Numbered from the stretch's first letter, positions 37,890-60,687 are shown. The stretch is 64,000 nt of DNA from an uncultured Planctomycetales bacterium (GCA_964489065.1 CAZAXH010000003.1:127104-191103), one strand, 5' to 3'. The notes: generated by a model not told the origin, from the letters alone. A program made the numbers and translations.

Positions 37890-38035
37890 GGGACAGGGCG
37901 CTCGTTTGATATAATGACGAAACAGGCGCAGGGTGTTATTATAGGAGCGTAGAAAGAAGCCCTCCCGGCTGGGGCTAATTTAAAATTTTGTTGTTTGGTG
38001 TAAAAGATAAGCACTTTCTCTGGGTATCAGGCGCG

Positions 38036-39625
38036 ATGAAAGGAAATAATGATTTTATATTTTTGTGTCGGGTTTGTTTTTGGTCCCTTGTTGTTGTGTC
38101 GCTGTCCGTTTTGCCATCCCTCACGTTTGCCGCGTTGTCCAGTGTGCCCGATCCCTCGGCCCCGCATAAATTATTCAGTCCTGTCATAAGTGTGGAAAAC
38201 CTCCCTGTGGTTAAAGAGCCGGTCAGGGGCTTGAGCCTTGAGCAGGTGGAGGAGGTCCGCGCACTGTTTAAAAACGAACGGTTTGGCGCGCTGAGCGTCA
38301 TGATGGATAAATATCTGGCCGTGATCGAATCCGATCCGGCCGATGAGTTTTTGATTCATGATTTTCTCTCGATTTTTTCGGAGCCATCCCCTGACTGCGA
38401 GCGCTTGCTTCTTAAATGGAAAGAAACGTTCCCGTATAACTACCAGCCGTATTTGGCCTTGGCCCAGTATTATCATCAGCGGGGATGGGAAAACCGCGGG
38501 TCCAAAATTGTCCAGGAACCTTCGAATGAGCAGTTTCAGAAAATGGAGGACTGTTTTCAGCAAGCAGAGGAAAATATTAAAAAGGTTTTAAAAATGAAGC
38601 CTAATTTGTTGCCCGCGCATGGAATGTTAATCAGCCTTTATGGCGTTTCCAGGCCCGACCGGGAGAAGGAACTGATTACTGCGCGCGCGCTTGAATTGTT
38701 TCCCCATTCTTATCTTATCCGGAAAGAGATCGTGTCTTCGCAAACGCCGCGATGGGGCGGAAGCTATGAACAGATGCAGTCGGTCGCCCGGGATGCGGAG
38801 CCATATAATCGTATCAACCCGAACATGACGAAATTGTATGGTTATATATATGAAGATCAGGCGTGGTATCTGAAGCGGGCCCAGCAATATGATAAGGCGA
38901 TCGACCTGCTGCGGGACGCCTTGGCTTTTGGAGAACGCGCAGCCCTTCATGAGCAGATCGCGGAAATATATTATTATAATTTTAAAGATTCCCCCCGGGC
39001 TTTGGAGGAAATTAACGAAGCAGTCCGGCTCGGCCTGGGAGCATCCTGTTATCTTCTTCGTTCAAAAATATATTATAAGTTGGAAGATTATGCAAATTCG
39101 CTGCGTGATCTGGAAACGGCAATCCGGGTCGATCCATTTTATGACGAAGCGGGGAAATGGGCCCGGGGGGCCGGCCGGGACTTGATGCTTCAGGGGCAGG
39201 AAAAATATAAGTCCAGGCATGTGCGGGCCGCGATTGGCTTGTTTAATGTGTCCCTGAAATTTAATGACCGGGATTACGAAACATTTTACTGGCGGGGGAA
39301 GGCTTTTTTTGACAAAGGGGACGCGGGAGCCGCACTTAAAGATTTTGAGCAGGCGCTGGCCTTGAACCCCGGGGATTTTCAGTCCGTCAGCATGATCAGT
39401 GATATCGCCAGTTCTGAAAGGCAGTTTGATTACAGCCTCGGCTACTGGGAGCGGTTCCTGAAGCTAGAACCAAAGCACGCAGGAGCTTATCTTAAGCGGG
39501 CCAGGGTGTATTACTATAAAAATGATTTTGAGAGTTGTTTGAAAGATTTAAACCAAAGTTGCCGCTTGGGGAACCGGGAAGCGTGCACCCGGATTAATAA
39601 TGTTAAAACCAAGGGCAGGTTCTAA
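38036..39625 (+). CDS. Exported TPR-repeat protein
   Basis: Signal peptide; multiple TPR-like helical repeats (e.g. ALAQYYHQRGW, YYKLEDYANSLRDLETAIRVDP, FYWRGKAFFDKGDAGAALKDFEQALALNP). Confidence 0.65.
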   Translation: MKGNNDFIFLCRVCFWSLVVVSLSVLPSLTFAALSSVPDPSAPHKLFSPVISVENLPVVKEPVRGLSLEQVEEVRALFKNERFGALSVMMDKYLAVIESDPADEFLIHDFLSIFSEPSPDCERLLLKWKETFPYNYQPYLALAQYYHQRGWENRGSKIVQEPSNEQFQKMEDCFQQAEENIKKVLKMKPNLLPAHGMLISLYGVSRPDREKELITARALELFPHSYLIRKEIVSSQTPRWGGSYEQMQSVARDAEPYNRINPNMTKLYGYIYEDQAWYLKRAQQYDKAIDLLRDALAFGERAALHEQIAEIYYYNFKDSPRALEEINEAVRLGLGASCYLLRSKIYYKLEDYANSLRDLETAIRVDPFYDEAGKWARGAGRDLMLQGQEKYKSRHVRAAIGLFNVSLKFNDRDYETFYWRGKAFFDKGDAGAALKDFEQALALNPGDFQSVSMISDIASSERQFDYSLGYWERFLKLEPKHAGAYLKRARVYYYKNDFESCLKDLNQSCRLGNREACTRINNVKTKGRF

Positions 39626-43391: not shown

Positions 43392-43595
43392 AGCATATCA
43401 GACGGGGCAGGGGTTGCCATGACAGGCGGGCGTCTTTTAAGCGAAAAAATATTCGTCTTCGCAGGAGACCCCAGGCGGACTGCGGATGAATGCGAGAGGG
43501 CAATGGCCAAAGGAAATTTTGCATAAAATAATATTTTGTCGTATATTAATTTAATTGCAGAAACGGGCCATGGGCCCCAAGAACAGGGAGTCGCT

Positions 43596-44843
43596 ATGCC
43601 AAAAAAACGGAACGCCGAGGCCGCTTTAAACATCTCTCATGCGGAAGAGCTGAAGATATTACGACAGATCGTCGATATAACATCTGCGGAGATGGACCTG
43701 GCGCGGACGCTGAAAGAGGTCGTTGGAATTGTCAACGACACGACCCAGGCGGATTCGGTTTTTATCTATCTTTTTGACGAAAGAAAAACAAATTTAACCT
43801 TAATGGCCTCCAAGCTGCCGCACAAAAAAATGCTGGGGCATCTTGTCCTGAAAGTTGGGGAGGGCATTACCGGGTGGGTGGCCCAGGAAAATAAGCCAGT
43901 GGCCATCAGCCAGAACGCCTGCCAGGACGCCCGGTTCAAGAATTTTGATGTTTTGCCGGAAGACCGATATGAAGCCTTCCTGTCCGTCCCTATTGTTTAT
44001 AAGGGGAAGGCGATCGGGGTTATTAATGTCCAGCATAAAAAGCCGCATAATTACAGTGCTCAGACGGTCAATATTATCTGCACGATCGCCAAGCAGGTCG
44101 GGGGGGTGATTGAACACGCTGTTCTTTATGAGCACATTAAGCAGAAAGCCAAGCAGTTTGACAGCCTGGTTAAAGTGAGCCAGTCGATCACTTCGGAAAA
44201 TTATCTGGATGAAATTTTAAACCTGATCGTTGTGGTGACAGCGGAGATGCTGAATTCCAAAATTTGTTCGATCCTCCTTTTGGATGACAGGAAAGAAAAG
44301 GAGCTTGTGATTAAAGCCACGCAGAGTTTGAGTGAGGAATATAAACAGAAACCGAACCTGAATGTGGACCGCAGCCTTTTGGGGGAGGTGATTAAATGCA
44401 AGAAACCGTTGGTGTGTCAGGATGTCCGGCAGGAACAGAAATATTTTTATCGCGACCTGGCGGTGAAAGAAAACCTGACTTCGATGATTGCGGTCCCCAT
44501 GATTGTTAAAGATACCGCGATCGGGGTAATCAATGTATATACCAAAGAGCCGCATGTGTTTACGGATGAGGAAATAGGGGTTTTGCAGATGGTGGCTAAC
44601 CAGGCGGCGGTCGCGGTGGAAAATACCAAGTTGATGCAGGAAGCCCTTAAGGCTAAAGAGGCCCTGGAAACGCGTAAACTTGTCGAGCGAGCTAAAGGCA
44701 TTTTGATGCGCATGAACAATCTTTCCGAGCAGGCCGCGTACCGGTTGATCCATAAAAAGAGCATGGATACCTGCCGTTCCATGAAGGAGATTGCGGAATC
44801 CGTTATTCTCATGGATGAATTGAGCTCCGCAAGCTCCTCATAA
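43596..44843 (+). CDS. GAF-GAF-ANTAR RNA-binding antitermination regulator
   Basis: Two GAF domains followed by a C-terminal ANTAR motif (KLVERAKGILMRMNNLSEQAAYRLIHKKSMDTCRSMKEIAESVI); directly upstream of the amt leader. Confidence 0.75.
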   Translation: MPKKRNAEAALNISHAEELKILRQIVDITSAEMDLARTLKEVVGIVNDTTQADSVFIYLFDERKTNLTLMASKLPHKKMLGHLVLKVGEGITGWVAQENKPVAISQNACQDARFKNFDVLPEDRYEAFLSVPIVYKGKAIGVINVQHKKPHNYSAQTVNIICTIAKQVGGVIEHAVLYEHIKQKAKQFDSLVKVSQSITSENYLDEILNLIVVVTAEMLNSKICSILLLDDRKEKELVIKATQSLSEEYKQKPNLNVDRSLLGEVIKCKKPLVCQDVRQEQKYFYRDLAVKENLTSMIAVPMIVKDTAIGVINVYTKEPHVFTDEEIGVLQMVANQAAVAVENTKLMQEALKAKEALETRKLVERAKGILMRMNNLSEQAAYRLIHKKSMDTCRSMKEIAESVILMDELSSASSS

Positions 44844-44944
44844 AAAGATGTCTTGAGGGCTCCGGAGAAACAGGAAACCGGGGGGCGCGTGGCTGTTGTT
44901 CGTCGTCGGAAATGTAGGGATTTTTTGCTGAAAATAAAAATACC

Positions 44945-44973
44945 TTGACAAAAGATTGCGGAAATATTATATT
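44945..44973 (+). promoter_or_regulatory. Sigma70-type promoter for the amt operon (TTGACA-17-TATATT)
   Basis: TTGACA 44945-44950, 17-nt spacer, TATATT 44968-44973. Confidence 0.55.
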
Positions 44974-45013
44974 TTAACCAGACCATTGACGGTTTATCAT
45001 AACGGGCAAAGAA

Positions 45014-45046
45014 GTCCGGATTCTGTATAAGACTCCGGGCTTTTTT
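45014..45046 (+). terminator. Leader intrinsic terminator T1 upstream of amt (7-bp stem with G·U, 13-nt loop, T6)
   Basis: gtccgga/tccgggc pairing 45014-45020/45034-45040 followed by ttttttattttt. Confidence 0.55.
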
Positions 45047-45063
45047 ATTTTTGGGCATTGATG

Positions 45064-45103
45064 TCCTCTTCATGGCAGGTGTTCTGCGGAAGAGGATTTT
45101 TTT
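45064..45103 (+). terminator. Leader intrinsic terminator T2 upstream of amt (8+4-bp interrupted stem, T7)
   Basis: tcctcttc/gaagagga 45064-45071/45089-45096 with inner gcag/ctgc, followed by ttttttt 45097-45103. Confidence 0.65.
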
Positions 45104-45232
45104 ATGTTTAAAGAGTGGACACAGGGGTCCATCACGAGCAAAGACAGCTTGCGGGTCCGTTGGCGGGGCAGAGTACTTTAATAAAAAAGACGTTGGGTCC
45201 GGGGCAGTCCCGGATCAAGAGGAGGAAAAGAC

Positions 45233-46621
45233 ATGTTTGGAAAAAAGATGAAGACTCTCCCTGTGCTCGCGATTGTCCTGGGTCTTGGGATGATGCTTTG
45301 CGCTGGCTCAGGAATGGCGGAAGAGCCGACCGTAGCCGGTAACGCTGCGGCTTTGGCTGAAAAAAGTGTGGCCCTGGACACCGTGTGGACGCTTATCGCC
45401 GGAATGCTGGTCATGTTCATGCAGGCCGGGTTTGCGATGGTGGAAACCGGGTTTACCCGGGCAAAGAATGCCTGCAATATTATGATGAAAAATTTGCTTG
45501 ATTTTACGGTTGGTGCGGTTATTTACTGGGCTATTGGCTTTGGGATTATGTTTGGGGCCGGGAATTTGTTCTTTGGGACAAGCGGATTTTTCCTGGCTGA
45601 TAGCGGAAGCACGTTTGCTTCTTTAGATTGGAGCAGCGTTTCCTTGGCGTGTAAATATTTCTTTCAGATGGTGTTTGCCGCGACCGCCGCGACGATTGTT
45701 TCCGGGGCCATGGCGGAACGCACTAAATTTTCTGCTTATTTGGTATACAGCGTGGTGATCAGCGCGTTGATTTATCCTGTCGTTGGCCATTGGATATGGG
45801 GCGGCGGCTGGCTGGCGGGAATAGGAATGTGGGATTTTGCCGGGTCAACGGTTGTGCATTCCACAGGGGCCTGGATGGCGCTGGTGGGGGCGATTATGTT
45901 GGGCCCGCGGCTGGGAAAATATCGTGCCGACGGCACTTCCAACGCGATCCCAGGGCATAATATCCCGCTGGCGACCCTGGGGGTTTTTATTCTCTGGTTT
46001 GGGTGGTATGGCTTTAACCCCGGAAGCACGATGGCGGCCGTTCCGGCTATTGGGCATATCGCCATGACGACAACGATTGCCGCGGCGGTCGGCGTTAACG
46101 TGGCGATGGTGACATCCTGGTTTATGTTTTCTAAACCGGATATTTCTATGGCGTTAAACGGTGGGCTGGCAGGCCTGGTGGCGATCACGGCCGGGTGCGC
46201 CTTCGTGTCTCCGGGCAGCGCGGCGTTGATTGGACTGGTGGCCGGTGTCCTGGTTGTCCTGTCCGTGGTTATGCTCGACAAAGTTTTTCATATTGATGAT
46301 CCGGTCGGGGCCGTGTCAGTTCACGGGGTTTGCGGTATCTGGGGCACCCTGGCGGTCGGGCTTTTTGCGCAGGACGTTTTTTCTCCGGGGACGACCGGAA
46401 ACGGGTTGTTTTTCGGCGGAGGAATAAAGTTGTTTATGTCTCAGTTAGCCGGCGTGGGCGCAGTCATGGTTTGGTGTCTTGTTACCGGAATTGTCCTTTT
46501 CTCGGTTATTAAAGCGACAATCGGATTACGGGTGAGTAAAGAAGAAGAATTGCGGGGCCTGGATATTGATGAGCATGGCATGGAGGCTTATTCCGGGTTC
46601 CAGATTTTTACAACGGAATAG
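45233..46621 (+). CDS. amt: Ammonium transporter (Amt family), copy 1, with signal peptide
   Basis: Amt/MEP signature regions ([42 protein letters not shown]); 462 aa. Confidence 0.9.
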
Positions 46622-46627
46622 TCAGAC

Positions 46628-46654
46628 GGGGGCGTCGGGTCTCCCGACGCCCCC
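46628..46654 (+). other. GC-rich perfect hairpin (11-12 bp) between amt1 and the PII gene, no U-tract
   Basis: gggggcgtcggg/cccgacgccccc inverted repeat; read directly. Confidence 0.6.
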
Positions 46655-46704
46655 GGGACAGTGATATAAAAAGACGATTTAAATACGATAAGGAGGAATG
46701 TCCC

Positions 46705-47046
46705 ATGAAATTAATTATTGCCATGATTCAGCCGCATAAGTTGCCGGATGTGAAAAAAGAGCTTTTTGCTGCGGATGTCCATAAAATGACAGTGACAAAT
46801 GTTCTCGGTTGTGGTCAGCAGAAAGGGTATAACGAAACATACCGGGGTGTTGTACACGAGGTGAATTTGCTGAAGAAAGTCCGTTTGGAAATCGCGGTTA
46901 ATGAAAATTTTGTTAAGCCGACGATTGACGCGATTATCCGCGGCGCCAAGACGGGCAAGATCGGAGACGGCAAGATATTTGTACTCGATTTGCCGGAATG
47001 CATCCGGGTCCGAACCGGGGAAAGAGGAAGCGAAGCCATAGGATGA
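46705..47046 (+). CDS. glnK: PII-family nitrogen regulatory protein (amt-linked, divergent T-loop)
   Basis: 113 aa PII fold ([13 protein letters not shown]...[14 protein letters not shown]...GDGKIFV); sits between two amt genes. Confidence 0.75.
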
Positions 47047-47076
47047 TGGAGCGTAAGGCGTCTCCCCATGATTCAA

Positions 47077-47199
47077 TGAGCATTTAGTTTGCACGACCGA
47101 AGGGAGTGAGCCCAAGCGAACGAGTCAAAGGATGTTGGTTTAATACCCAGCAGCTTGCTGCGGTTCATTGAGTCCAGAGCTTGCTCTGGGGTTTATACC
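47077..47199 (+). repeat. R1 repeat copy C, between glnK and amt2
   Basis: Shares the 5' block (gagcatttagttt.cacgacc.aagggagtg), the middle block (agcgaacgag.c.aaggatg.tggtttaatacc) and the 3' block (agcttgct...ggttcatt...agcttgctctggggtttata) with copies A and B. Confidence 0.75.
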
Positions 47200-47234
47200 T
47201 TGATTGGATCAGGACATAACATAAGGAGGGAAGT

Positions 47235-48572
47235 GTGACACACAGGAACCGCGTTAAATTATTGTTGCTGATCGGGGCGGCTTTTTGGGCTGGCCCGGTT
47301 GGCCAGGCCTCGGCAGATGCCGGAACTATTCCCAGCGTTACAGGGCTGGACACCCTGTGGGTGTTGATAACCGCTTTTTTGGTTTTTTTTATGCAGGCGG
47401 GCTTCGGGATGGTGGAGGCGGGTTTTATCCGGGCGAAAAACACCTGTAACATATTGACGAAGAATTTTATGGATTTCTGTATGGCGTCGTTGGGTTATTT
47501 TATGTTCGGTTATGCCATTATGTTCGGGGAGGGGAACGGGTTCCTCGGAGTTAAAGGCTGGTTTTTAGCGGGCGCGGAATCAGGCGCCAGTATCCCTCTT
47601 TATGCCTTTTGGCTTTTTCAGGCGGCCTTTTGCGGGGCCGCAGCCACGATCGTGGCCGGAGGCATGGCAGAACGGATGAAGTTTCAGGGGTACTTGATTT
47701 ATTCTTTTGTCATTTCAGCATTTATTTATCCGATCGTCGGGCATTGGGTTTGGGGCGGCGGCTGGCTGTCGAAGCTGGGGTTTGCGGATTTTGCCGGATC
47801 AACGGTGGTGCATTCCCTGGGCGGTTTCGCTGCGCTGATCGGGACGATGATCCTGAAGCCGCGGACCGGAAAATACAACCCGGACGGATCGGTCAATGCT
47901 ATTGCCGGACACAATATTCCCCTGGCGTCCTTAGGGGTCTTTATCCTGTGGTTCGGATGGTTTGGTTTTAATCCAGGGTCTACGTTGTCTGTCGGGGACG
48001 GCAGTCTGATCGCCCGGGTGGCGATTAACACAAATTTGGCGGCGGCTGCGGGAGGGATAGCGGCGATCATCACGGTGTGGAAAATGTTCGGTAAGCCGGA
48101 TCTGTCCATGGCCATGAATGGCGCCTTGGCCGGGTTGGTTGCGGTTACCGCGCCCTGCGCTTTTGTTGACCCCTGGGCCGCCATTATGATCGGCGCCATC
48201 GGCGGGGTTATTGTCGTGTGCGGTGTTGTTTTTTTGGACCGTCTTCGGATCGATGATCCGGTCGGGGCCGTCCCTGTTCATGGGTTTAATGGTTTTTGGG
48301 GGACCGTTGCCGTCGGGATTTTCGGTCGCCAATCCTTGGGCCTGGCGCACGACGGGCTGTTGTATGGAGGAGGATTGTCTCAACTGGGAATTCAACTCCT
48401 GGGTGTCACGGCGGCTGTCGTTTTTATCTTGGTGACCATGGGGGCGTTGTTCAAGCTGATTGACGCCACTGTTGGGTTGCGGGTTACCGTTGAAGAGGAG
48501 CACCGTGGCCTGGATATCGGCGAACATGGCATGGAATCCTATTCAGGATTTCAGATTTTTACGACATCATAA
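47235..48572 (+). CDS. amt: Ammonium transporter (Amt family), copy 2
   Basis: 445 aa; same Amt signatures ([36 protein letters not shown]). Confidence 0.9.
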   Translation: MTHRNRVKLLLLIGAAFWAGPVGQASADAGTIPSVTGLDTLWVLITAFLVFFMQAGFGMVEAGFIRAKNTCNILTKNFMDFCMASLGYFMFGYAIMFGEGNGFLGVKGWFLAGAESGASIPLYAFWLFQAAFCGAAATIVAGGMAERMKFQGYLIYSFVISAFIYPIVGHWVWGGGWLSKLGFADFAGSTVVHSLGGFAALIGTMILKPRTGKYNPDGSVNAIAGHNIPLASLGVFILWFGWFGFNPGSTLSVGDGSLIARVAINTNLAAAAGGIAAIITVWKMFGKPDLSMAMNGALAGLVAVTAPCAFVDPWAAIMIGAIGGVIVVCGVVFLDRLRIDDPVGAVPVHGFNGFWGTVAVGIFGRQSLGLAHDGLLYGGGLSQLGIQLLGVTAAVVFILVTMGALFKLIDATVGLRVTVEEEHRGLDIGEHGMESYSGFQIFTTS

Positions 48573-48649
48573 ACAAATTGTTTGCTGTTTTTTAGGGAGA
48601 AAACGTCCCGGTTTGAATCTGGTGGCAAGGAGAGGAGGAGAGAAGCGGT

Positions 48650-48790
48650 ATGTTAGCGACGACTATAATGATGGTTTCTTTGGGGGCGCTGTTTTGGGTG
48701 TTTAAAAAATACTTGTGGCTGAAAATGTTTTACACAAAAGAATCTCTCGTCGCTGCTTTAAGAAGAGAGAGCGAAGAGAAGGCAACTTGA
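48650..48790 (+). CDS. Possible 46-aa single-TM micro-protein (MLATTIMMVSLGALFWVFKKYLWLKMFYTKESLVAALRRESEEKAT)
   Basis: Strong RBS (AGGAGAGGAGGAGAG) 8 nt upstream of the ATG; hydrophobic core; below the ORF-track size cut-off. Confidence 0.35.
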   Translation: MLATTIMMVSLGALFWVFKKYLWLKMFYTKESLVAALRRESEEKAT

Positions 48791-48873
48791 ACTAGCCTTT
48801 TTTATCTGTCTTTGAAGAAAACCACGGGCATGCCCGTGGAGGGGTGCGGGAGGGTAACAATGTCCTCTGCTTC

Positions 48874-48954
48874 CGGGATGTTCGTGCATATGTTGAGACA
48901 CTTGATCATTCCGCGAAGCAAGGATTAACAGGGATCGCGCCCGTGGGCGTGGCG
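48874..48954 (+). repeat. R2 repeat copy 3, upstream of glnN
   Basis: CGGGATGTTCGTGCATATGTTGAGACACTTGATCATTCCGCGAAGCAAGGATTAACAGGGATCGCGCCCGTGGGCGTGGCG aligns with copies 1 and 2. Confidence 0.6.
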
Positions 48955-49117
48955 ATCTGTGAAATTCAAGCTTCATAAAAAAGATGGGACGTCGTTAATA
49001 ATGGAACGCGGCGGGCCTGAAAATATTTCCCATTTGGGGGCTTCTGTGTTTTATAATAATCTAATTTTTAGAACGCAGAGAGCTTCGGAATGGATAAATT
49101 AAACATGGAGGAAAAAG

Positions 49118-51223
49118 ATGGAAGAAAGACTCGAACATTTGGGAGGACAAACAGTTTCTGATATTTATGGCCAGAATGTTTTTAGCCTTAAGGCCATGCG
49201 GAATTATCTTTCAGAAAAGGCGTTTCAGTCCTTGAGCAAAACGATCAAAGAAGGCGGGCCGCTTGATCCCGGCATTGCGGATGAGGTGGCTGACGCGATG
49301 AAAACCTGGGCTGTTTCCAAGGGGGCTACGCATTTTACGCACTGGTTTCAGCCGTTAACCGGCACGACCGCGGAAAAACATGACTCATTTATCGTTCCGG
49401 ATGGCGAGGGCGGGGTCCTTCTGGATTTTTCAGGCAAAGAGTTGATTCAGGGCGAGCCGGATGCGTCCAGTTTTCCATCCGGAGGGTTGCGATGGACATT
49501 TGAAGCCCGGGGTTACACGGGGTGGGATCCGACGAGCCCGGCTTTTATTAAAGAAGGGCCACAATGCGCCACACTTTGCATTCCGACCTATTTCATCGGC
49601 TGGAACGGAGAGGCGTTGGATAAGAAGACTCCTCTTTTGCGCTCCATGAAAGCGCTTTCCAAACAGGTTTGTCGGCTGGCCGGCTTGTTCGGCATTGAAA
49701 CCAAAGGCAAACAGGCTTATGCTACGCTGGGCGGTGAACAGGAATATTTTCTTATTGACCGCGAATATTACCTGCAGCGCATTGACCTGATTCAGACAGG
49801 CCGCACGCTTTTCGGGAAGGAACCGGCTAAACATCAGCAGATGGCTGACCATTATTTTGGTGCTATTAAGGGCCGTATTATGGGTTTTATGGAAGATTTT
49901 GACCGGGAGATGTGGAGGCTCGGGGTTCCCACCAAGACGCGCCATAATGAGGTGGCGCCTGGACAATATGAAGTCGCTCCGATTTTTGAGAGCCTGAACC
50001 TGGCTGTGGATCACAATATGCTTTGTATGGAGGTCATGAAACGGGTTGCCGAGCAGCATGGGTTGGTGTGTCTCCTGCATGAAAAGCCTTTTGCCGGGGT
50101 TAACGGTTCGGGGAAACATAATAATTGGGCTATCGTTGGGCCAGACGGAAAGAACTGGCTGGATCCGGGTGATAATCCCCATGAAAATGCCAAATTCCTC
50201 GTTACCCTGTGTGCGGTGATTAAGGCCGTGGACACGCATGCCGGCGTGTTGCGTTCGTCGGTGGCGACAGCGGGTAATGATCACAGATTGGGATCGCATG
50301 AGGCGCCTCCGGCGATTATTTCTATTTTTCTCGGCGAACAGCTTACGGATATTATTGAGCAGATTGAAAAGGGAGAAGCCAAGCATTCTAAATCCGGCGG
50401 AGTCCTTGAGATTGGCGTGGATTCTTTGCCCAACCTCCCGCGTCACGCGACTGACCGGAACCGCACATCCCCGTTTGCTTTCACCGGGTCAAAATTTGAG
50501 TTCCGGGCGGTGGGGTCCAATATGAGTCTAGCCGGTCCGAATATTATTTTGAACACGATCGTGGCCGATGCTATCGGCGATATTTGTTCCCAGTTGGAAA
50601 AAGACTTGAGTGCGAAAAAGGATTTTAACGCCTCTTTGCAGAAAATTTTGAAAAATATCATCAAAACGCACAAACGGATTATTTTTAACGGAGATAATTA
50701 CACGGAAGCCTGGGTGAAGGAAGCCGATCAACGGGGACTCCCGAATCTAAAAAACACTCCGGAAGCCCTGGCCGTGATGAGCGACCCTGAGGTGGCTAGT
50801 CTTTTTGAGCGACACGGTGTTTTAACGAAGAAGGAACTGGCGTCCCGCAACGAGGTGTATCTTGAAGCCTACAATACAACTATTGATTATGAGGCCAAGC
50901 TTTCCGTGGACATGGTCAAGACCCTGATTATGCCTGCGGTGTTTAATTATCAGGAAGATTTGGCGGAGAGTATTAAGTCAGCGGAGTCCGTCAACAAGTT
51001 TAAATCTACGGCGTCCCGTAAACTGCTCGCGGAAATCACCCGGGAGGCGGAAGCGGCATTGAAAAAAACAGATAAACTCCAGGCGGCCATTGATAAAGGA
51101 GCCGCTTTAAAGACGAAGGCAGCCATGGGAGACCTGCGTCTCACGATCGATACTCTGGAAGGCCTGGTTCCGGCTGATTATTGGCCGTTGCCGTCTTACG
51201 CGGAGATGTTGTTTATTGTTTAA
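49118..51223 (+). CDS. glnN: Glutamine synthetase type III
   Basis: 701 aa (GSIII size); GSIII-like N-terminal region and catalytic-domain blocks (NGSGKHNNWA, HEAPPAIISIFLG). Confidence 0.8.
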   Translation: MEERLEHLGGQTVSDIYGQNVFSLKAMRNYLSEKAFQSLSKTIKEGGPLDPGIADEVADAMKTWAVSKGATHFTHWFQPLTGTTAEKHDSFIVPDGEGGVLLDFSGKELIQGEPDASSFPSGGLRWTFEARGYTGWDPTSPAFIKEGPQCATLCIPTYFIGWNGEALDKKTPLLRSMKALSKQVCRLAGLFGIETKGKQAYATLGGEQEYFLIDREYYLQRIDLIQTGRTLFGKEPAKHQQMADHYFGAIKGRIMGFMEDFDREMWRLGVPTKTRHNEVAPGQYEVAPIFESLNLAVDHNMLCMEVMKRVAEQHGLVCLLHEKPFAGVNGSGKHNNWAIVGPDGKNWLDPGDNPHENAKFLVTLCAVIKAVDTHAGVLRSSVATAGNDHRLGSHEAPPAIISIFLGEQLTDIIEQIEKGEAKHSKSGGVLEIGVDSLPNLPRHATDRNRTSPFAFTGSKFEFRAVGSNMSLAGPNIILNTIVADAIGDICSQLEKDLSAKKDFNASLQKILKNIIKTHKRIIFNGDNYTEAWVKEADQRGLPNLKNTPEALAVMSDPEVASLFERHGVLTKKELASRNEVYLEAYNTTIDYEAKLSVDMVKTLIMPAVFNYQEDLAESIKSAESVNKFKSTASRKLLAEITREAEAALKKTDKLQAAIDKGAALKTKAAMGDLRLTIDTLEGLVPADYWPLPSYAEMLFIV

Positions 51224-53897: not shown

Positions 53898-54386
53898 ATG
53901 AAGGAGGTTGCCGTGAAAAGATGGTGTCTTATTTTTGCAATTATGATGTGCGCTTTCGGCTGTGAACAGAAAAAAGAGGTGAAATTTGAAGCTCCCGTTC
54001 CGCAACCGGCGGCTCATGATTTCATGAAGGACGGGGTTGAGTATTTGGAGCAGGCTAAAGTGCCGGAAGCGATCCGGAGCTTTGATGAAGCGATCAAGCA
54101 GAATCCGGTTGACCCGCAACCCTATCTGGTTCTGGGGCAGACGTATATGCGTATCAACGACTATACCCGCGCGATCGATACCTTTTCTGCGGCGCTGCGG
54201 GTTTCTCCCGACAAGGGGTCATTGCATTATTTGATCGCGGTGAATTACCGGCTCCTGGGAGACCTGGAATTGGCCCGCAAAAACGCGGAAATAAGCATTG
54301 AGTTTTTCCGCCAAAAACAGGATGAAAAAAATTTTTTGATGGCGCTCGCCTTGCTGCAGGAACTTTCCGAAGAGCAAAACAAATAA
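53898..54386 (+). CDS. TPR-repeat lipoprotein
   Basis: Lipobox MMCAFGC; TPR-like repeats (YLVLGQTYMRINDYTRAIDTFSAALRVSP). Confidence 0.6.
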   Translation: MKEVAVKRWCLIFAIMMCAFGCEQKKEVKFEAPVPQPAAHDFMKDGVEYLEQAKVPEAIRSFDEAIKQNPVDPQPYLVLGQTYMRINDYTRAIDTFSAALRVSPDKGSLHYLIAVNYRLLGDLELARKNAEISIEFFRQKQDEKNFLMALALLQELSEEQNK

Positions 54387-54390
54387 CCTT

Positions 54391-54858
54391 TTGGCTGGAG
54401 GCGCCGTTATGGTCCGCTTCTTTTCTTTTTTGAGGGCCGTTGTCATTCTTGCGACGGTATTTTTTCCTTTGTCCAGCGAGTGCGCCGACGAGTCCCCGGA
54501 CATGCAGGAACGGCTGTATAATTTGCGACTGAAGCAGGAAGATGTCAGGGATATTTACCTGAAAAAAAGACAGGAAATGGCGGCGGATTTTCAGGAAAAG
54601 ATGAAGGTTTTGCGGTCCGAAGGGCGCGGTTCGGAAGTTATCCGGGCCGAGATCGGGGATTATCAATATCAGCAGCGGTCGCTTAAGGCGGCTTATCGGA
54701 AAGTCATGAAGGATATTCAGGAGAAAATCAACTCCCTTAAATTGAAAGAGGGGGGGTATTCTTCGGACGTGTCGGTCATTCAGCTTTTGAAGCCCAAGGA
54801 AAATACCTATTGTCCTCCGACGTTATACGAAAGAGTGTTGTTGAATATCCGGTGTTGA
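54391..54858 (+). CDS. Hypothetical exported coiled-coil protein
   Basis: N-terminal hydrophobic segment then a charged helical sequence; no motifs. Confidence 0.45.
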   Translation: MAGGAVMVRFFSFLRAVVILATVFFPLSSECADESPDMQERLYNLRLKQEDVRDIYLKKRQEMAADFQEKMKVLRSEGRGSEVIRAEIGDYQYQQRSLKAAYRKVMKDIQEKINSLKLKEGGYSSDVSVIQLLKPKENTYCPPTLYERVLLNIRC

Positions 54859-54909: not shown

Positions 54910-55242
54910 GTGATGAAACATACAATCCAAAATATATTATCCGGGCTTCCGGAGAGCAGCCAGGAAGAAATATTTACGAGCCTTTTGAAGACCGGGCATT
55001 TTGATTTGGAACGCATTATTTCCACAGGACAAACAACTCCGCCGGGGGAATGGCTTTCGCAAGACAGGCATGAATGGGTGCTGGTTTTAAGCGGCCGGGC
55101 GCGGTTACGTTTTCAGGATGCGGAGAGTTTTCATGAGCTTGAACCCGGCGACGCTGTCTTTATCCCGTCTGGATGTCCTCACCGGGTCGAATGGACCGAC
55201 CCGGCCCAAAAAACCGTATGGCTAGCCCTGCATTACGCATGA
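54910..55242 (+). CDS. Cupin-domain protein
   Basis: 110 aa; cupin barrel motifs (HEWVLVLSGRARLRF...GDAVFIPSGCPHRVE). Confidence 0.6.
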   Translation: MMKHTIQNILSGLPESSQEEIFTSLLKTGHFDLERIISTGQTTPPGEWLSQDRHEWVLVLSGRARLRFQDAESFHELEPGDAVFIPSGCPHRVEWTDPAQKTVWLALHYA

Positions 55243-57425
55243 TTCTTTTTTTTGTCCTTGCGGTGATCGGGACTCTTTCCGCGTTCCCTTCGTTTTTGTT
55301 CCCTTTCGGTTTCTGGCCGGCCGCTTGGGTTTGTCTTATTCCTTTTTTTTTCTGCCTTGCCCGTTCGGGCGCCCTTTACCGCAGGCTTCTGACCGGCGGC
55401 CTGTTCGGCGTCTGTTTTTACGCGCTTTTAATTCGATGGTTTATTTCTTACAGCCTGCCGGGATATTTATTTTTTGTCATTGTGTTGAGTGTCCAGCCCC
55501 TGCTTTTTGCGTTTTTTTTTCCTCCTCCGTTTTCATCCAGGATATTTCGCCTTTTTTATTGGCCGGCTTTGTGGACAGGCAGTGAATATGTCCGGCAGGC
55601 TCTCCTGCGGGGTTTTTCCTGGAATCTCGGGTGTTCTCAGTCCTTTAACCTGTATGTGTTGCAGTGGGCCAGCCTGGGCGGGTCGTTTCTGCTTTCATTT
55701 TTTTTGGTTCTGTGCAACACCTGTTTTTATGAAATGGCGGAGGCGAAGGAGCGGCGGTTATTTTATATAAAAATGCTGGCCGCGGTCAATCTGCTGGCCT
55801 GGGCCGGGGGGGCGGCGCAATATTATTTTTTGTCCGGGGCCCCGGTGCGTGAGCCGCCGGTGCGCGCGGCGGTTGTGCAGGCGGCGGCTGACCCCCGCGA
55901 AAAACTCGACGCCGATCGGGTGAGCCGTTTTGTCGGAGCCCATGTCCGCCTGTCGTTCGCGCGGGACCCTTTTTCCTCCGTCGACATGATCGTGTGGCCG
56001 GAGACCGCGGTTCCGCTGGATCCCCGGCAGGACATTTTCTTGATGGGGACTGTTGTCGAGATGTGCCGCCGTCAGGGTGCCGGCGTCTTAACCGGCATGG
56101 CGTGGGAGGACGATGAAGGCCGTTTGTATAACGGGGCGGCCTGGATTGGCCCGACGGGAGAGTTTTTTGAAGTGTACCGGAAGCAATATTTAGTCCCTTT
56201 TAGCGAGGAACAGCCTTGGCCCGGACGGCGGCTTGGGGCGTTTATTGAAGAGAACTGGGGTAAGAACGCGTATCATTTTACGCGGGGGGAGGGGCTGGGG
56301 GTGTTGCCCTTGTCTTTCATTCGCCCGGGACTGTCCGGATCCGTGGGGCTGGCTATTTGTTCGGAAGACACCGTGAGCGCCCTGTTTCGGAAGTACGCGC
56401 ACGCCGGGGTTGATTTGATGATCGTGCTTCTGAATGATGGCTGGTTTCAAGATTCGACCGCCTTGATTCAGCACGCGCAGAATTCAATTTTGCGGGCGGT
56501 TGAAATCCGCCGCCCGGTTTTACGGGCCGCCAATAGCGGATGGACCTGTCTGATTGATCCTCGCGGACGCGTGCTTCCCCTTTCGGAAACGGGCTTGATG
56601 GAAGCCGGCGCAGGCGTTTTTGAGTTGGTGCCCTTTTCAGGCCGGGCCCCGTATGTTTTTATCGGAGACTCCTTTTGCATTTTATTGACAGCGTTTGTTA
56701 TAATAAGCCTATTATTATCTAGAGTAAAAAAAATAGAGAATAGGGTTATGAGAAAATTCTTAAGCCTGTTGGCGATATCAGTGTGTTGCTTCTCCTTCCC
56801 TTTGTTTTCGGAAGCCGGCGGGGTGGCGGCCCGGAAACAGCAGGGAGTCAGGGTGCATCCCCAGGTTCAGGTTCAGCCGTCTTCACCCGGACGGCCCGGG
56901 GTTTGGCCGGCCAGCTCTTCCGGGAACCAGTCCCAAGAGAGGGAAGAAGCGCAGGCGACCCCCGCGCCGTCATTGATCCCGAAACAATCTTATCCCGAAA
57001 GCCGGGTTTTGACCAGCGCGGCAGGCCGGGCCGGAGGACAGATTATCGGGAGCGTGGCGGCGGACGCGGACATGACTGTTGAAGAAAGTCTGATCCAGCT
57101 TTTGGCCCTGCTGGAGCAATCCAGTGAAATCTGGACGCAAATCAGCGATGTTAATTATAAAGTTCTGGTGGTTTCCCAGCATATAGAACGCTACCGGCAG
57201 GAGGGGACGCTGATCCGTAAACCCCCGGTGTATTACGCGCAGTTTATCACGAGCATGGGGGAAGGGAATCCGGCGCTTTTGTCCCGGCCGTTTTCAGAGC
57301 TTTTACGGCTGGCCGCGATTATGGACTATGACTTTGAGACCGGGCAGAACAAAGACGCGCTGGCGCGCTCAGTCCTCGGCGATGAAATGTACCGGGCTAA
57401 CCGGAAACGGCTGGGGATGCCATGA
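55239..57425 (+). CDS. lnt: Apolipoprotein N-acyltransferase (Lnt) fused in-frame, with no stop, to a C-terminal TM segment plus an exported domain (X1, from about 56749)
   Basis: Multi-TM N-terminus, CN-hydrolase domain with E...K...C triad context (WPETAVP, LAICSEDT) and a terminal TM, then MRKFLSLLAISVCCFSFPLFS plus a roughly 200-aa domain homologous to 59168..59785. ATGA overlap with the cupin stop supports the start at 55239. Confidence 0.7.
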   Translation: MILFFVLAVIGTLSAFPSFLFPFGFWPAAWVCLIPFFFCLARSGALYRRLLTGGLFGVCFYALLIRWFISYSLPGYLFFVIVLSVQPLLFAFFFPPPFSSRIFRLFYWPALWTGSEYVRQALLRGFSWNLGCSQSFNLYVLQWASLGGSFLLSFFLVLCNTCFYEMAEAKERRLFYIKMLAAVNLLAWAGGAAQYYFLSGAPVREPPVRAAVVQAAADPREKLDADRVSRFVGAHVRLSFARDPFSSVDMIVWPETAVPLDPRQDIFLMGTVVEMCRRQGAGVLTGMAWEDDEGRLYNGAAWIGPTGEFFEVYRKQYLVPFSEEQPWPGRRLGAFIEENWGKNAYHFTRGEGLGVLPLSFIRPGLSGSVGLAICSEDTVSALFRKYAHAGVDLMIVLLNDGWFQDSTALIQHAQNSILRAVEIRRPVLRAANSGWTCLIDPRGRVLPLSETGLMEAGAGVFELVPFSGRAPYVFIGDSFCILLTAFVIISLLLSRVKKIENRVMRKFLSLLAISVCCFSFPLFSEAGGVAARKQQGVRVHPQVQVQPSSPGRPGVWPASSSGNQSQEREEAQATPAPSLIPKQSYPESRVLTSAAGRAGGQIIGSVAADADMTVEESLIQLLALLEQSSEIWTQISDVNYKVLVVSQHIERYRQEGTLIRKPPVYYAQFITSMGEGNPALLSRPFSELLRLAAIMDYDFETGQNKDALARSVLGDEMYRANRKRLGMP

Positions 57426-57459
57426 GGGGCCGTGAGGACCGGGAAAGGCCGGGTGTCCG

Positions 57460-59181
57460 ATGAAAAGGCTTGGGAGCGGGCTTCCTCTTTCTGGGGCGTA
57501 TGGTGCGTTTGTCATTATTTTTATTGTTCTGATGACGGTCTGGTTGGCACGGACAACGTATTATATCAACGCCTGGCCGTCGGACTCCGCGGCGTCGTAT
57601 ATTCCAACCGCGGAGAAGCTGTTTGAGATGCGCTTTTTTTCGCAGATGCATGACCTGCATCTGCACGGATTAAGCAAACTTAATATGCGGGGGAAAGAAG
57701 CGCTTGTCGTGGCCATCGCGGTCCTGCAGAGGCTTCTCGGAGACACAAAAAGCCTTTATCCGAATATCCTGCTTTTAATTTTGTCCGCGGGGCTTTCCGC
57801 TGGGCTTCTGTTCCTGATTTTTAAAAGGATTTTTAACGCCGCCGTCGGGTTTGTTGCATTTGTGCTTTTCGCCTGCAGTTTCTGGCCGTATATGTATGTC
57901 CTGCTGGGCGCCCATCAGCCCCTGGTCCTCTGCAATTTTCTTCTTTCATTTTTTTTCCTGCAGCGTGCGGGGCAAAAACGAGTTTATCCTTTTTTGGGCG
58001 GGCTGTTTTTCGGGCTGGTCTTTTTTTCTTCTCCCACGGCCATTATGTATATGCCGTATTACGGGCTGTTGTTGTTGACGGATACTCTGGGCTTCCGTCC
58101 GTCCAGGGTTTTTTCCGCTGAAGCCGGCCGGCATTTTTTGTTTTTTTGCTCCGGCCTGGCCGTCGTGCTGTTGGCGTTCACGCTGCCGCGGCCTTTAGAG
58201 AGCCTGAAGATGTTTATTATTTATGTGTTTTTGAGCCGGGGGGGGAACCATTTTCAGCATTACGGGGATTATCTGAGCCGGTTTTTCCCGGTGCCGGTTT
58301 TTTTCCGGGGCGGCGGATGGCTTTGGATTATTAAATATTTCATGCTGACCATGCCAGTCCTGTTTGCCGCCTGCGGGGGGAGCGTGGCCTACCTTCTGGC
58401 GTGTTCGACCAAACCCCGAAAGACGCTTATGCTGATTCTCCTCGGGCTATCAACGCCCTTGGCGGTGGAGATCATCCAGGTGGCCCAGTTCGGCCGGAAT
58501 TATTTTTCCTGGTTTTTCGGCATGATTTTTTTGGTCTGCGCGGCGGCGGGTCATTATATGGACAGCCATTCCCCTTTTTCCTGGAAAAAACACCGGGCCT
58601 TTTCCGCGATTTTGGCGGTGGTTCTGGCGTGTCACGTTATTTTTAACGCGAAGGTCTTTTTTCAAGATGTCCTGCCGTCCCGTTTGGCCACGACATACGC
58701 GTATGCGTGGCTTTACCAGCGGAACATTGGACAGGTTCTGGTTTACCAGGAGCATCACAGCAACACGTTTGCGGCGGATGTCCTGAATAATCCCAAAGTG
58801 CCGGCAAAAATTAAGTTTTTGGGCATCACGTCTTTTCTACAGGCCCGGGAGGGATATGTCCTTTTGCCGGGGACCAGCGGGACGACGATTTGGAATGATT
58901 GTTCCCGCGGCCCTTTTACCGGCGATCCGGCCCTGCAGGCGATCATTGCGGCCGGGCTTCTGCCGGAATGCGCCGTAGCCCGGTTTCATACGGTGGCGTC
59001 GAGCCGGTACTGGCCGCAGGAAGAAGAAGTCTGTACTTACCGGGACCTTATGCTGGGGCAGGTGTCGGAGGCGGACCGGCGCCTGAGTGAAATTTATATC
59101 CTGGACGTGGCGCGGTTGCGGAAAGTGTACACGGAACAAATTTTAAAAAACAGGGCAGAGGAAAATTATGATAAACAATAA
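57460..59181 (+). CDS. GT-C-fold polytopic membrane glycosyltransferase-like protein, distant paralog 3
   Basis: 573 aa, about 12 TM; middle blocks resemble paralogs 1 and 2 (…FNAAVGFVAFVLFACSFWPYMYVLLGAHQP…). Confidence 0.45.
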   Translation: MKRLGSGLPLSGAYGAFVIIFIVLMTVWLARTTYYINAWPSDSAASYIPTAEKLFEMRFFSQMHDLHLHGLSKLNMRGKEALVVAIAVLQRLLGDTKSLYPNILLLILSAGLSAGLLFLIFKRIFNAAVGFVAFVLFACSFWPYMYVLLGAHQPLVLCNFLLSFFFLQRAGQKRVYPFLGGLFFGLVFFSSPTAIMYMPYYGLLLLTDTLGFRPSRVFSAEAGRHFLFFCSGLAVVLLAFTLPRPLESLKMFIIYVFLSRGGNHFQHYGDYLSRFFPVPVFFRGGGWLWIIKYFMLTMPVLFAACGGSVAYLLACSTKPRKTLMLILLGLSTPLAVEIIQVAQFGRNYFSWFFGMIFLVCAAAGHYMDSHSPFSWKKHRAFSAILAVVLACHVIFNAKVFFQDVLPSRLATTYAYAWLYQRNIGQVLVYQEHHSNTFAADVLNNPKVPAKIKFLGITSFLQAREGYVLLPGTSGTTIWNDCSRGPFTGDPALQAIIAAGLLPECAVARFHTVASSRYWPQEEEVCTYRDLMLGQVSEADRRLSEIYILDVARLRKVYTEQILKNRAEENYDKQ

Positions 59182-59785
59182 CGTTCGTCAGGCGGGCTGG
59201 TGCCTTGAGGTTCTCAGCCTTTGGTGCATGCTGATCATTCTCCTCGTCTTTCTTCAGGGACGGGCTTTGGCCGGCGGTGCGGCGGCTATGAAAAAACAAC
59301 AGGGACCGCAAATGATGCAGCAGAAGATTTTGCAGGAAACGGCGAAGCAGGAACAGGTGGCCCAACAGTATATGGCTTTCCGGGAACAACAGGCCAAGAC
59401 CAGCGTTTTGTCTGCCGAGCAGTTGGGCGTACAGGCGGAAGCGGATTTTTCCGATGTTATTCAGGCTTTATTAAAAACGAGCCGCGCCTGGGCCCTGATG
59501 GTGGACGCGGAGGCGAAAGAAGCGGTGGTTGCTTATTTTTTAAAAGAGTTCCGCGGGAAAGGGATTGTGATTCAGAAGCCGGCGTGGTATTATGTCGGTC
59601 TCATTGATTCGATGTCCCGGGAATCTCCGGACATGCTGACCCAGCCTTTTGACCGGGTGCTGCAGATCGTGGCGATTGTCGAGTATGATTATGAAAACGG
59701 CCAGGATAAGGACATGCTGGCTTATCAGATTTTGGGCAGCAAGGAAGCCGTGATTCAGAACCGGCAGCGGCTGGGGCTTCCCTGA
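59168..59785 (+). CDS. Exported protein X2, paralog of the Lnt-fused C-terminal domain
   Basis: Signal peptide, Q-rich linker, conserved C-terminal block WYYVGLIDSM...QPF...VEYDYENGQDKDMLAYQILG...QNRQRLGLP matching YYAQFITSM...MDYDFETGQNKDALARSVLG...ANRKRLGMP. Confidence 0.55.
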   Translation: MINNNVRQAGWCLEVLSLWCMLIILLVFLQGRALAGGAAAMKKQQGPQMMQQKILQETAKQEQVAQQYMAFREQQAKTSVLSAEQLGVQAEADFSDVIQALLKTSRAWALMVDAEAKEAVVAYFLKEFRGKGIVIQKPAWYYVGLIDSMSRESPDMLTQPFDRVLQIVAIVEYDYENGQDKDMLAYQILGSKEAVIQNRQRLGLP

Positions 59786-59790: not shown

Positions 59791-60687
59791 GTGAACAGAA
59801 TGACGGATGAAGGTATTTTAAAAACGCTTTTGACCATTGTTGAGCAGGGCGGGCGTCTGGCCGGGAGCATGATTCATGACAGTCGGCCCTCTTTGAAGCC
59901 GGACCAGTCGGTTTTGACACAGGCGGACAAGGCGGTTTCCGCTCTTACGCGGGACAGTCTGCGAGAATATCTGGCCTCCGGCAATCATGTTTTGATTGAT
60001 GAAGAAGACCCTGCAAGCGCCAGTCTTTTTGACCCGGTGATGTCCGGCGCCTATAAATATGTTTGGTCCCTGGACCCGGTAGACGGAACCAGGGCGTATT
60101 CCAACCAGATGCCGGTCTACGGCGTGTCTTTGGGAATCATGCGGGACGGCCAGCCGTGGATGGGGGCGGTTTTTTTCCCCTCTCTACAGGAATTGTATTA
60201 TTGCGACGGCTCTCGGGCTTTTTTTGTCAGGGATGCTTTTTCTCCCGCGGCCACGGAACACCCGATCATCCCGCTGGATCAGGACATTACGCCGCAATCG
60301 GTTTTCTTGTCTTCCGATCATTTTTTGTGCCGGTACCGGTGGGACCAGGATTTTTGCCAGATTATGATGCCGACCGTGGCCGTGGTGGAGCTATGCTGGC
60401 CCGCGGTCGGCCGGGGGTGCGGCAGTTACTTCGAAGCCAATCTTTGGGATTTTGCCGGGGCCTGGCCGGTGTTTCGAGCCGCCGGTCTGGAGCTCCGTTC
60501 CTGCAAGACAGGCCGGGTTCTGGATAGTTTGCGGAGAGACGCTTTTCGCGGGCAGGGACCAAAAACCTGGCGGATGAGCGGTGATTATATTTTATCTTCC
60601 GGTCGTAATTATCCCCTGATCAAAAAACACATGAAGCCGTTTCCTGCCTGGCTTAGGGCGGCCTGGAAAGCGCCCTGGACAGGATAA
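59791..60687 (+). CDS. Inositol monophosphatase-family (FIG superfamily) phosphatase
   Basis: WSLDPVDGT motif and downstream metal-binding region. Confidence 0.7.
   Translation: MNRMTDEGILKTLLTIVEQGGRLAGSMIHDSRPSLKPDQSVLTQADKAVSALTRDSLREYLASGNHVLIDEEDPASASLFDPVMSGAYKYVWSLDPVDGTRAYSNQMPVYGVSLGIMRDGQPWMGAVFFPSLQELYYCDGSRAFFVRDAFSPAATEHPIIPLDQDITPQSVFLSSDHFLCRYRWDQDFCQIMMPTVAVVELCWPAVGRGCGSYFEANLWDFAGAWPVFRAAGLELRSCKTGRVLDSLRRDAFRGQGPKTWRMSGDYILSSGRNYPLIKKHMKPFPAWLRAAWKAPWTG

Follow-up and report, generated by a model that had tools for sequence, protein, structure and literature searches.

Lnt, a drug target, carries out the last reaction in the maturation of lipoproteins. We know of no dedicated Lnt partners beyond the actinobacterial Lnt-Ppm1 and the AatD offshoot of the family. 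When two proteins occur as a Rosetta-stone fusion, this counts among the better genomic indications that they interact physically or share a pathway, and here we describe such a fusion that involves Lnt. It lies in a 64,000-nucleotide stretch of DNA recorded as that of an uncultured Planctomycetales bacterium (GCA_964489065.1 CAZAXH010000003.1:127104-191103; the whole stretch is hereafter called the window), a genome that we assign to Omnitrophota, where the lnt reading frame continues into a predicted exported domain, X1. A paralog of this domain, X2, is encoded as a separate gene on the far side of a gene for a membrane glycosyltransferase of the GT-C fold. The fusion is real, and it recurs and reverts among relatives. 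We consider it likely that it is a shallow read-through fusion whose products equal those of the unfused genes, that X acts with Lnt, and that the GT-C gene is a later insertion.

Comparison with described systems

The closest described arrangement is Rv2051c (Ppm1) of Mycobacterium tuberculosis, a natural fusion of Lnt with a polyprenol-phosphate-mannose (PPM) synthase (PMC3460810). As in the window, Lnt forms the N-terminal part and the partner the C-terminal part, and the halves are adjacent separate genes in relatives, lying in one operon in M. smegmatis and C. glutamicum (ppm2/ppm1) (PMC3460810). The Rv2051c fusion has been read as the sign of a shared pathway and, as here, a GT-C enzyme (GT39/Pmt-type) belongs to the wider story. 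When we looked for the same pattern, the genes were fused in the window, in loci L002-L009 and in L056, and separate in L010, L012-L021 and distant Omnitrophota (L-numbers denote genome or contig loci). However, the partner in Rv2051c is a cytoplasmic GT2 enzyme joined to the cytoplasmic C-terminus of Lnt, whereas here it is a predicted exported domain with a fold that has no known match, and the extra membrane crossing would come from the partner's own signal peptide. X is not a GT2 PPM synthase, as it has no Pfam or NCBIfam match, and it is predicted to be exported rather than cytoplasmic; nor does it have homology to Ppm1. What is new relative to Rv2051c is therefore the exported partner, the membrane crossing supplied by that partner, the phylum, and a fused state which is labile and flips between near-identical lineages.

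AatD is a Lnt homolog which acylates the secreted protein CexE on G20 after cleavage between A19 and G20 (PMC7943197). Mature CexE begins with GGGNS, G21 also contributes, and AatD shares its catalytic residues with Lnt (PMC7943197). The likeness of AatD and CexE/Aap to this locus lies in a Lnt-family gene near a small secreted protein which (in the case of X by heuristic prediction) lacks a lipobox and has a signal peptidase I site and a mature N-terminus starting with Gly-Gly. On the other hand, AatD is a dedicated paralog in an aatPABCD operon, whereas the enzyme here scores as a housekeeping Lnt and has no Aat transporter genes nearby. The Gly at position +1 is invariant in CexE/Aap and is present in 56% of the X family, and X and CexE/Aap have no sequence similarity; acylation of X is hypothetical.

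A further parallel is FbcH of Bradyrhizobium, a cytochrome b/c1 polyprotein with an internal signal peptide which is split post-translationally at a signal-peptidase site. There too the frame encodes a polytopic protein with its end in the cytoplasm, then a signal peptide inside the chain and lastly a protein of the periplasm, and the parts are separate adjacent genes elsewhere. The proteins and the pathway are unrelated to those described here, and cleavage has been demonstrated experimentally for FbcH whereas it is predicted for X1.

Lnt reads through into an exported domain

The open frame spans 750 codons (55173..57425; all features given here between 53898 and 60687 are on the plus strand). 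Its 728-amino-acid product, on which independent gene callers agree and which is present as an exact match in NCBI and Logan records, starts at the ATG at 55239, where it overlaps the stop codon of an upstream cupin gene as ATGA. The first-pass annotation had proposed both this start, from the ATGA coupling, and a lnt frame without a stop up to the end of the exported domain, and both proposals held.

The Lnt part (residues 1-503, 55239..56747) consists of a membrane domain (Pfam PF20154, LNT_N) and a catalytic domain (PF00795, CN_hydrolase), both matched with E about 1e-21. It scored 233.4 bits against TIGR00546 (NCBIfam), for which the equivalog cutoff is 132.9. The catalytic set was complete, comprising WPE (E255, 56001-56003), YRKQYLVPFSE (K315, 56181-56183, and E323) and AICSED (C374, 56358-56360), and we predict a catalytically intact enzyme which N-acylates diacylglyceryl-Cys apolipoproteins. 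E. coli Lnt, with the catalytic residues E267/K335/C387 and a stabilising E343 (residue roles as in PMC7943197), has the same combination of LNT_N and CN-hydrolase domains, the same E-K-C triad plus Glu, and a last transmembrane (TM) helix after the periplasmic domain. It has eight TM helices, with the N- and C-termini both in the cytoplasm (PMC5500888).

The Lnt core is thus canonical and departs from the norm at its C-terminal end only. In a canonical Lnt the chain stops in the cytoplasm within a few residues of TM8, whereas the window protein carries 225 further residues in frame, which are reached through a ninth hydrophobic segment. By hydropathy, TM8 covers residues 475-493 (56661-56717), and it is followed by a basic linker of ten residues, SRVKKIENRV (56718-56747); the 13-residue stretch after TM8 contains 6 K/R and 1 D/E. 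After the linker comes MRKFLSLLAISVCCFSFPLFS (residues 504-524) and then about 200 residues more. The linker includes a run of eight A (A8, 56726-56733) at which a change of one base either way leads to an immediate stop: with A7 Lnt would end in SRVKK (498 residues) and with A9 in VKKNRE (501 residues). As both alternatives stop Lnt, the window fusion hinges on the length of one homopolymer.

X1 is headed by a Met at nucleotide 56748. The segment that follows, MRKFLSLLAISVCCFSFPLFSEA (56748..56816), contains a hydrophobic stretch at residues 507-525 and, by hydropathy and charge, has the proportions of a signal peptide, with MRK as n-region, some 12 residues of h-region, a c-region that contains Pro, and the putative cleavage site SEA/GG (a slash marks the predicted cut). 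Alignments place the conserved, predicted N-terminus of mature X1 at GGVAARKQQG, followed by a low-complexity tether rich in Pro and Ser (56817..57035). The remainder (57036..57425, including the stop codon) was modelled by AlphaFold as an all-helical globular domain of about 125 residues (pLDDT 92.5, pTM 0.84) and carries the motifs KPP.YY, EYDFE.GQ.KD and, at the C-terminus, NRKRLGMP. X2 (59168..59785) is built from a signal peptide ending in ALA/GGAAAMKKQQG, a Gln-rich helix and an X domain; its region matching the X1 tether had low pLDDT in the model, and its start overlaps the end of the GT-C gene by 14 nucleotides. The paralogy of the fused domain to this secreted, stand-alone protein, proposed at first pass, was confirmed by BLASTP (40% identity over 124 C-terminal residues, E 2e-26). 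The earlier argument that the fused domain lies on the periplasmic side was also supported: the linker is basic, the next segment is hydrophobic, and the C-terminus of Lnt is cytoplasmic (PMC5500888), which would place X1 outside the membrane, as expected for the secreted X2.

The fusion is genuine and labile among relatives

Relatives were collected by means of X2 and their tree was derived from pairwise identities, which gave the relationships (L010,(L009,(L005-8,(window,L012)))). Their gene order was TPR lipoprotein, 150-residue exported protein, cupin, lnt, X1, GT-C, X2, inositol monophosphatase (IMPase), carA, carB and purF.

The A8 junction of the window was repeated in two independent Logan assemblies, SRR15237810 and SRR21822500 (L002 and L003). 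Two further lineages, with 66-70% identity in Lnt, are likewise fused in frame, through other junctions that contain no long homopolymer: L009 (730 residues, SCIRVKRKNHA-MKNL) and L005-L008 (715-730 residues, SKIRGLSKDFV-MKVF), compared with SRVKKIENRV-MRKF in the window. The length of the linker was near constant across the three fused lineages, at 10-11 residues, and the Met at the internal start of X1 was kept in every fused lineage. As two assemblies repeat the window junction and other lineages are fused through different ones, the window fusion is not an artefact. A distant in-frame fusion of 747 residues was found in L056 (protein P0175), a MEGAHIT contig whose Lnt is 39% identical to that of L010; its linker has no homopolymer, and AAAGGAG, a strong Shine-Dalgarno (SD) sequence, precedes the internal Met. 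The search for Lnt-X fusions in other genomes suggested at first pass therefore yielded both close cases (L002-L009) and this independent one.

The genes are separate in the outgroup L010, which has a 3.36-Mb chromosome (lnt of 504 residues and X1 of 227 residues, with a GTGA overlap), and also in the sister lineage L012-L021 at 92% Lnt identity (501 and 225 residues). The sister lineage was seen in more than 20 contigs from many samples and reads AAAAAAGTTT, and it has ...VKKFRE-TAG-agtt-ATG. Its junction, GTAAAAAAGTTTAGAGAATAGagttATG, is one base longer than GTAAAAAAAATAGAGAATAGGGTTATG in the window, and the sister genes are separate because of this one-nucleotide indel. The fused state is therefore labile, the coupled genes being separate in the nearest sister as well as in the outgroup. 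The comparison indicates that the fusion is genuine, that it arose at least twice and that single-base indels easily reverse it; within the window's clade it appears to be a shallow trait and not a fixed architecture.

Programmed frameshifting or slippage at A8 was considered as a conserved mechanism and rejected, because no lineage but that of the window has the run and the junctions of the other fusions lack a homopolymer; low-level transcriptional slippage is possible in the window's lineage alone. L001, a long-read contig of the L010 lineage, was also set aside as evidence on the fusion, as it is ridden with errors and its GT-C gene is split over four frames. In its positions 1-3700 there is a G7 run where L010 has G6, and an extra C, which are probably homopolymer sequencing errors. 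Some variation was seen even within species. L005/L006 and L007/L008 belong to one species (99% identity); some of these metagenome-assembled genomes have a 15-residue deletion in the X1 tether (715 vs 730 residues) and, around locus positions 4290-6014, a GT-C gene called as 378 residues or as 290 and 250 residues, and not as 569-573 residues. In L014 lnt is split into parts of 146 and 336 residues. All these differences may be real polymorphism or assembly error.

A conserved nucleotide element lies within the last TM codons of lnt

An exact match to the extended -10 pattern TGnTATAAT, TGTTATAAT (56696..56704), lies 52 nucleotides upstream of the X1 ATG, within the codons for the last TM helix of Lnt. 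It falls in TTTGTTATAATAAGCC (56694-56709), which at 16 nucleotides exceeds every other fully invariant stretch of lnt in a comparison of five lineages (9 for the runner-up). The element is encoded by F-V-I-[I/M] (F-V-I-I in the window), and this motif was written as TTTGTTATAAT in all 15 of the 15 loci with the in-frame amino acid motif, some of them from distant Omnitrophota. Codon usage predicts this in 1-9% per locus, a low expectation because ATA is a rare Ile codon, and elsewhere in lnt 26% of invariant degenerate residues keep the same codon. TGTTATAAT was seen at the 3' ends of lnt in L007, L009, L010, L012 and L026-L053, and also in the independent fusion L056, which makes every Omnitrophota lnt locus inspected, with about 45-57 nucleotides between the element and the start of X in most loci. 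A pattern scan of metagenome DNA added only two loci, both of the L007 type.

Rfam has no family over this region. The standard promoter scan, which calls for a -35 hexamer, for that reason passed over the element. The most economical interpretation is that TGTTATAAT acts as an internal promoter for X1, or as some other element at the DNA or RNA level, and it may explain why a short amino acid motif is conserved within a TM helix. X genes without a preceding lnt show no consistent extended -10 upstream, and the element thus belongs to the 3' end of lnt and not to X generally. In one locus without an adjacent lnt (L037, 2100-2810) TGTTATAAT was nevertheless present shortly upstream of the predicted start of X, perhaps as a remnant of a lnt 3' end or as an independent promoter.

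X is an exported protein family linked to lnt across Omnitrophota

The X domain is not confined to this genome. An exhaustive profile search gave a family of 440 cluster representatives (251 with E≤1e-30), most being stand-alone proteins of 170-350 residues (counts for the family refer to cluster representatives). A word-indexed search had returned a single match, of 141 residues and with L001 as its sole context, from which X1 would have seemed an orphan, and the profile search overturned this. The 90% protein cluster that holds the window fusion (55239-57422) mixes the 728-residue fusion with free Lnt of 501 or 508 residues and free X1 of 225 residues, and X1 was hidden from the word-indexed search because this cluster is represented by the 501-residue Lnt. 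Pfam gave no meaningful match in the ten X representatives scanned. Neither X nor the lnt-X1 junction belongs to a family of Pfam, NCBIfam or Rfam, no relative of X was found among PDB sequences, and a Foldseek search of the PDB with the globular model of X1 returned no neighbour at E<1.

Members share an order of parts: a signal peptide with a small-x-small site, a short apolar motif and then basic residues (typically /GGA[AV]A[KR][KR]QQ), either a Gln-rich helix or a Pro/Ser-rich tether, and a helical domain in which W, Y, Y-D, G and R are invariant and the last residues, NR.RLGLP, are conserved. By a heuristic rule, a small-x-small site followed the h-region in 123 of the 137 members having an N-terminal hydrophobic segment, and a lipobox was found in 3 of 149 members. 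The residue at +1, assigned by the same kind of heuristic, was G in 56%, S in 24% and A in 20% of the family. Both window copies read A/GG, and a Gly at +1 was found in 15 of 18 X copies in lnt operons vs 5 of 12 copies elsewhere. One family member, P0021 (568 residues), is a tandem-repeat version with four matched X-domain stretches behind one signal peptide (…VFA/GGAAARQQ).

We found X in 32 genome loci, nearly all of them labelled Omnitrophota, to which the family appears specific, and scored their context by scanning the open reading frames with the window's proteins. X directly follows lnt in 14 of the 32 loci, with an ATGA overlap in five of these. About half of the loci have the order TPR lipoprotein, Lnt, X (sometimes with a second X), then IMPase and carA, and six have TPR lipoprotein, X and carA without lnt. 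The TPR lipoprotein is the most constant upstream neighbour, lying upstream of lnt-X or X in 19 of the 32 loci; in the window it is encoded at 53898..54386 (Pfam TPR families, probable lipobox ...CAFG/C). X is thus linked to lnt across the phylum. On these gene orders, the link of X to Lnt and to the TPR lipoprotein is general and that to GT-C local. One of two readings of X that agree with the evidence is that it serves Lnt or the TPR lipoprotein as a partner in the periplasm, the other being that it is a substrate of Lnt.

The GT-C gene between the two X copies

The protein encoded between X1 and X2 is, as described at first pass, a GT-C-like membrane protein of 573 residues (57460..59181). 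It is PMT_2/GT39-like, with a marginal match to Pfam PMT_2 (27.6 bits vs a cutoff of 26.1) and at least 8 hydrophobic segments by hydropathy, and NCBI labels its close homologs 'glycosyltransferase family 39 protein'. It had also been called the third GT-C paralog of the window. This stood at the level of the superfamily, but in pairwise comparison the protein did not significantly resemble either of the remaining PMT_2 proteins (E 0.036 and >1), which share 38% identity with each other (genes starting at 18331 and 36336).

The GT-C gene adjoins X only in L022, L023 and the window's clade, the order elsewhere being Lnt-X-X or Lnt-X without GT-C. In L034, which has tandem X copies and no GT-C, one copy falls in the X1 clade and the other in the X2 clade, and for this reason the duplication of X probably predates the GT-C insertion. 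The gene thus appears to be a clade-specific, later insertion between two older X paralogs.

Proposed mechanism

We propose that lnt and X, which are separate genes in most of the phylum, are coupled there in translation by an overlap of stop and start (ATGA or GTGA), and that a frame change removed the lnt stop in the window's clade, so that ribosomes would run through the basic linker into the X1 signal peptide. This peptide would form a ninth span across the membrane, N-terminus in and C-terminus out, and X1 would land on the periplasmic side beside the catalytic domain of Lnt, a topology with which the charge and hydropathy of the junction are consistent. Signal peptidase I would then most likely cut at SEA/GG and free the same mature X1 as in the unfused arrangement. 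Cleavage is expected because the segment keeps n-, h- and c-regions and a small-x-small site like those of X2 and the family. X1 is probably also made independently, from the TGTTATAAT element and its own ATG, as is suggested by the retained Met, the SD sequence kept in L056 and the embedded -10 element. If the fused and split forms give the same products in this way, their interconversion by single-base indels would be explained. X would work with Lnt at the outer face of the inner membrane, as its partner or as its substrate. The suggestion made at first pass, that X works with Lnt and/or the GT-C enzyme, is favoured in its first half by adjacency, ATGA overlaps and an independent fusion, but a general link to GT-C was not borne out. 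A literature search gave nothing linking Omnitrophota with N-acyltransferase or with Lnt partners.

A number of points weigh against parts of this proposal. Between the window and its sister the polarity of the change is ambiguous, as either direction needs two indels, and the persistence of the fused state at 66-70% Lnt identity could mean selection and not neutrality. The SD sequence before the window's internal ATG (GAGAATAGGG) is weak relative to other genes here, and the SEA/GG site was predicted by a simple -3/-1 rule. The TGTTATAAT element, which lnt-less X genes lack in any consistent form, could serve a purpose other than as a promoter for X. Finally, the tree of X domains used to date the duplication is a crude neighbour-joining tree without support values.

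Alternative explanations

A more specific version of the idea that X works with Lnt, and one compatible with the proposal above, is that X proteins are Gly-acylated lipoproteins of the CexE/Aap type with the adjacent Lnt as their acyltransferase. Signal peptidase I would expose Gly-Gly, Lnt would acylate the alpha-amino group, the acylated N-terminus would anchor X, from which the low-complexity tether and the helical domain would hang, and the fusion would join enzyme and substrate. The A/GG sites of X1 and X2, the frequency of +1 Gly among copies in lnt operons, the rarity of a lipobox and the full E-K-E-C set of the enzyme all agree with this, and the signal peptide, short apolar motif, long flexible tether and globular domain form an architecture typical of lipid-anchored proteins; the cleavage of CexE and its acylation by a Lnt homolog provide a precedent. 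However, other residues besides Gly stand at +1 in the family, the score of the enzyme is that of a true housekeeping Lnt, and CexE was not acylated by the housekeeping Lnt of E. coli (PMC7943197). It is suggestive, too, that no second Lnt from the L010 chromosome was present among the 120 best of 210 matches. The neighbourhood contains no Aat-type transporter genes (ABC, PAP, TolC), X matches no Pfam family and hence none of the Aap/CexE families that Pfam may hold, and in some genomes X follows the TPR lipoprotein without an adjacent lnt. We regard acylation of X as rather unlikely on this evidence. The still bolder idea that non-cysteine lipoproteins occur throughout Omnitrophota, X being acylated on its N-terminal Gly (or another small residue) by the single housekeeping Lnt with dual Cys/Gly specificity and the recurrent fusions being enzyme-substrate pairs, also seems unlikely to us; if true, bacterial glycine acylation would reach far past the plasmid-borne Aat systems of enteric pathogens. 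It is likewise doubtful, in our judgement, that the fusion is an obligate two-domain enzyme under selection, in which an uncleaved ninth TM would keep X1 tethered in the periplasm, where as an accessory domain it might deliver substrate, hand off product or deal with lysophospholipid. Such an enzyme would agree with the maintenance of the fusion and of its linker length in three lineages and its second origin in L056, and Rv2051c is a precedent for a fusion of Lnt with a partner (PMC3460810). Against it, separate genes suffice in the 92% identical sister and in the outgroup, the segment is proportioned like a signal peptide and has a conserved small-x-small site of the same type as free X2, and the Met and upstream expression signals are retained.

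We think it most improbable that the window fusion is a homopolymer error, the true sequence being A9 with a 501-residue Lnt ending in SRVKKNRE and a separate X1 as in the sister. It is true that the frame depends on one A8 run, that A9 would give the same TAG as the ...VKKFRE of the sister, and that the long-read contig L001 shows such errors in data from this clade. Nevertheless, A8 is repeated in two further assemblies from different sequencing runs, the exact 728-residue protein is on record at NCBI and Logan, and other fused lineages have no homopolymer at the junction, so that fusion as such is real in the group. The idea that X1 and X2 are subunits or substrates of GT-C, with the block acting as a lipoprotein glycosylation module like the actinobacterial Lnt/Ppm1/Pmt, is in our view very unlikely. 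The genes are tightly packed, down to the overlap of GT-C and X2, and the Corynebacterium Lnt (Ppm2) has been proposed as a bridge between Ppm1 and the GT-C enzyme Pmt (PMC3460810). But GT-C lies beside X only in the window's clade, most genomes have the X family without it, the split between X1 and X2 appears older than its insertion, and it is called truncated or split in some metagenome-assembled genomes of a sister species in which the X genes are intact.

By itself the fusion is a modest curiosity; of greater value as leads are the X family, with its link to Lnt, and the element embedded in lnt. X is an unnamed exported family tied to lnt across an uncultivated phylum by adjacency, stop/start overlap, an embedded element and at least two independent fusions, and its A/GG mature N-terminus raises the concrete question of whether Lnt acylates it. 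The case also provides an example of how the loss of a stop between coupled genes may turn a signal peptide into an internal membrane span, in a manner which is readily reversed. For annotation, it should be noted that a 90% cluster mixing fusion, free Lnt and free X1 conceals the X family from word-based searches.

Other features of the window

Between the TPR lipoprotein and lnt the window encodes an exported protein of about 150 residues (54391..54858), which had no Pfam or NCBIfam match and is conserved only in the window's clade (L002-L010, L022 and L023), and a Cupin_2 protein (54910..55242, Pfam) whose stop is the one overlapped by lnt. Downstream of X2, an inositol-monophosphatase-family protein (59791..60687; Pfam, synteny) forms the border of the conserved block and is followed by carA, carB and purF.

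A nitrogen-regulation cluster was found at 43536-51223. It comprises a GAF-GAF-ANTAR regulator, a pair of Amt ammonium transporters and a glutamine synthetase of type III; a GATase-like gene and NAD synthetase come after these. A second glycosylation module lies at 35548-39625 and consists of a GT2 gene (35548-36333), an abutting PMT_2 GT-C gene (36336-37889), whose product is the one 38% identical to the PMT_2/STT3-like protein encoded at 18331-19923, and a TPR/DUF4034 gene (37988-39625).

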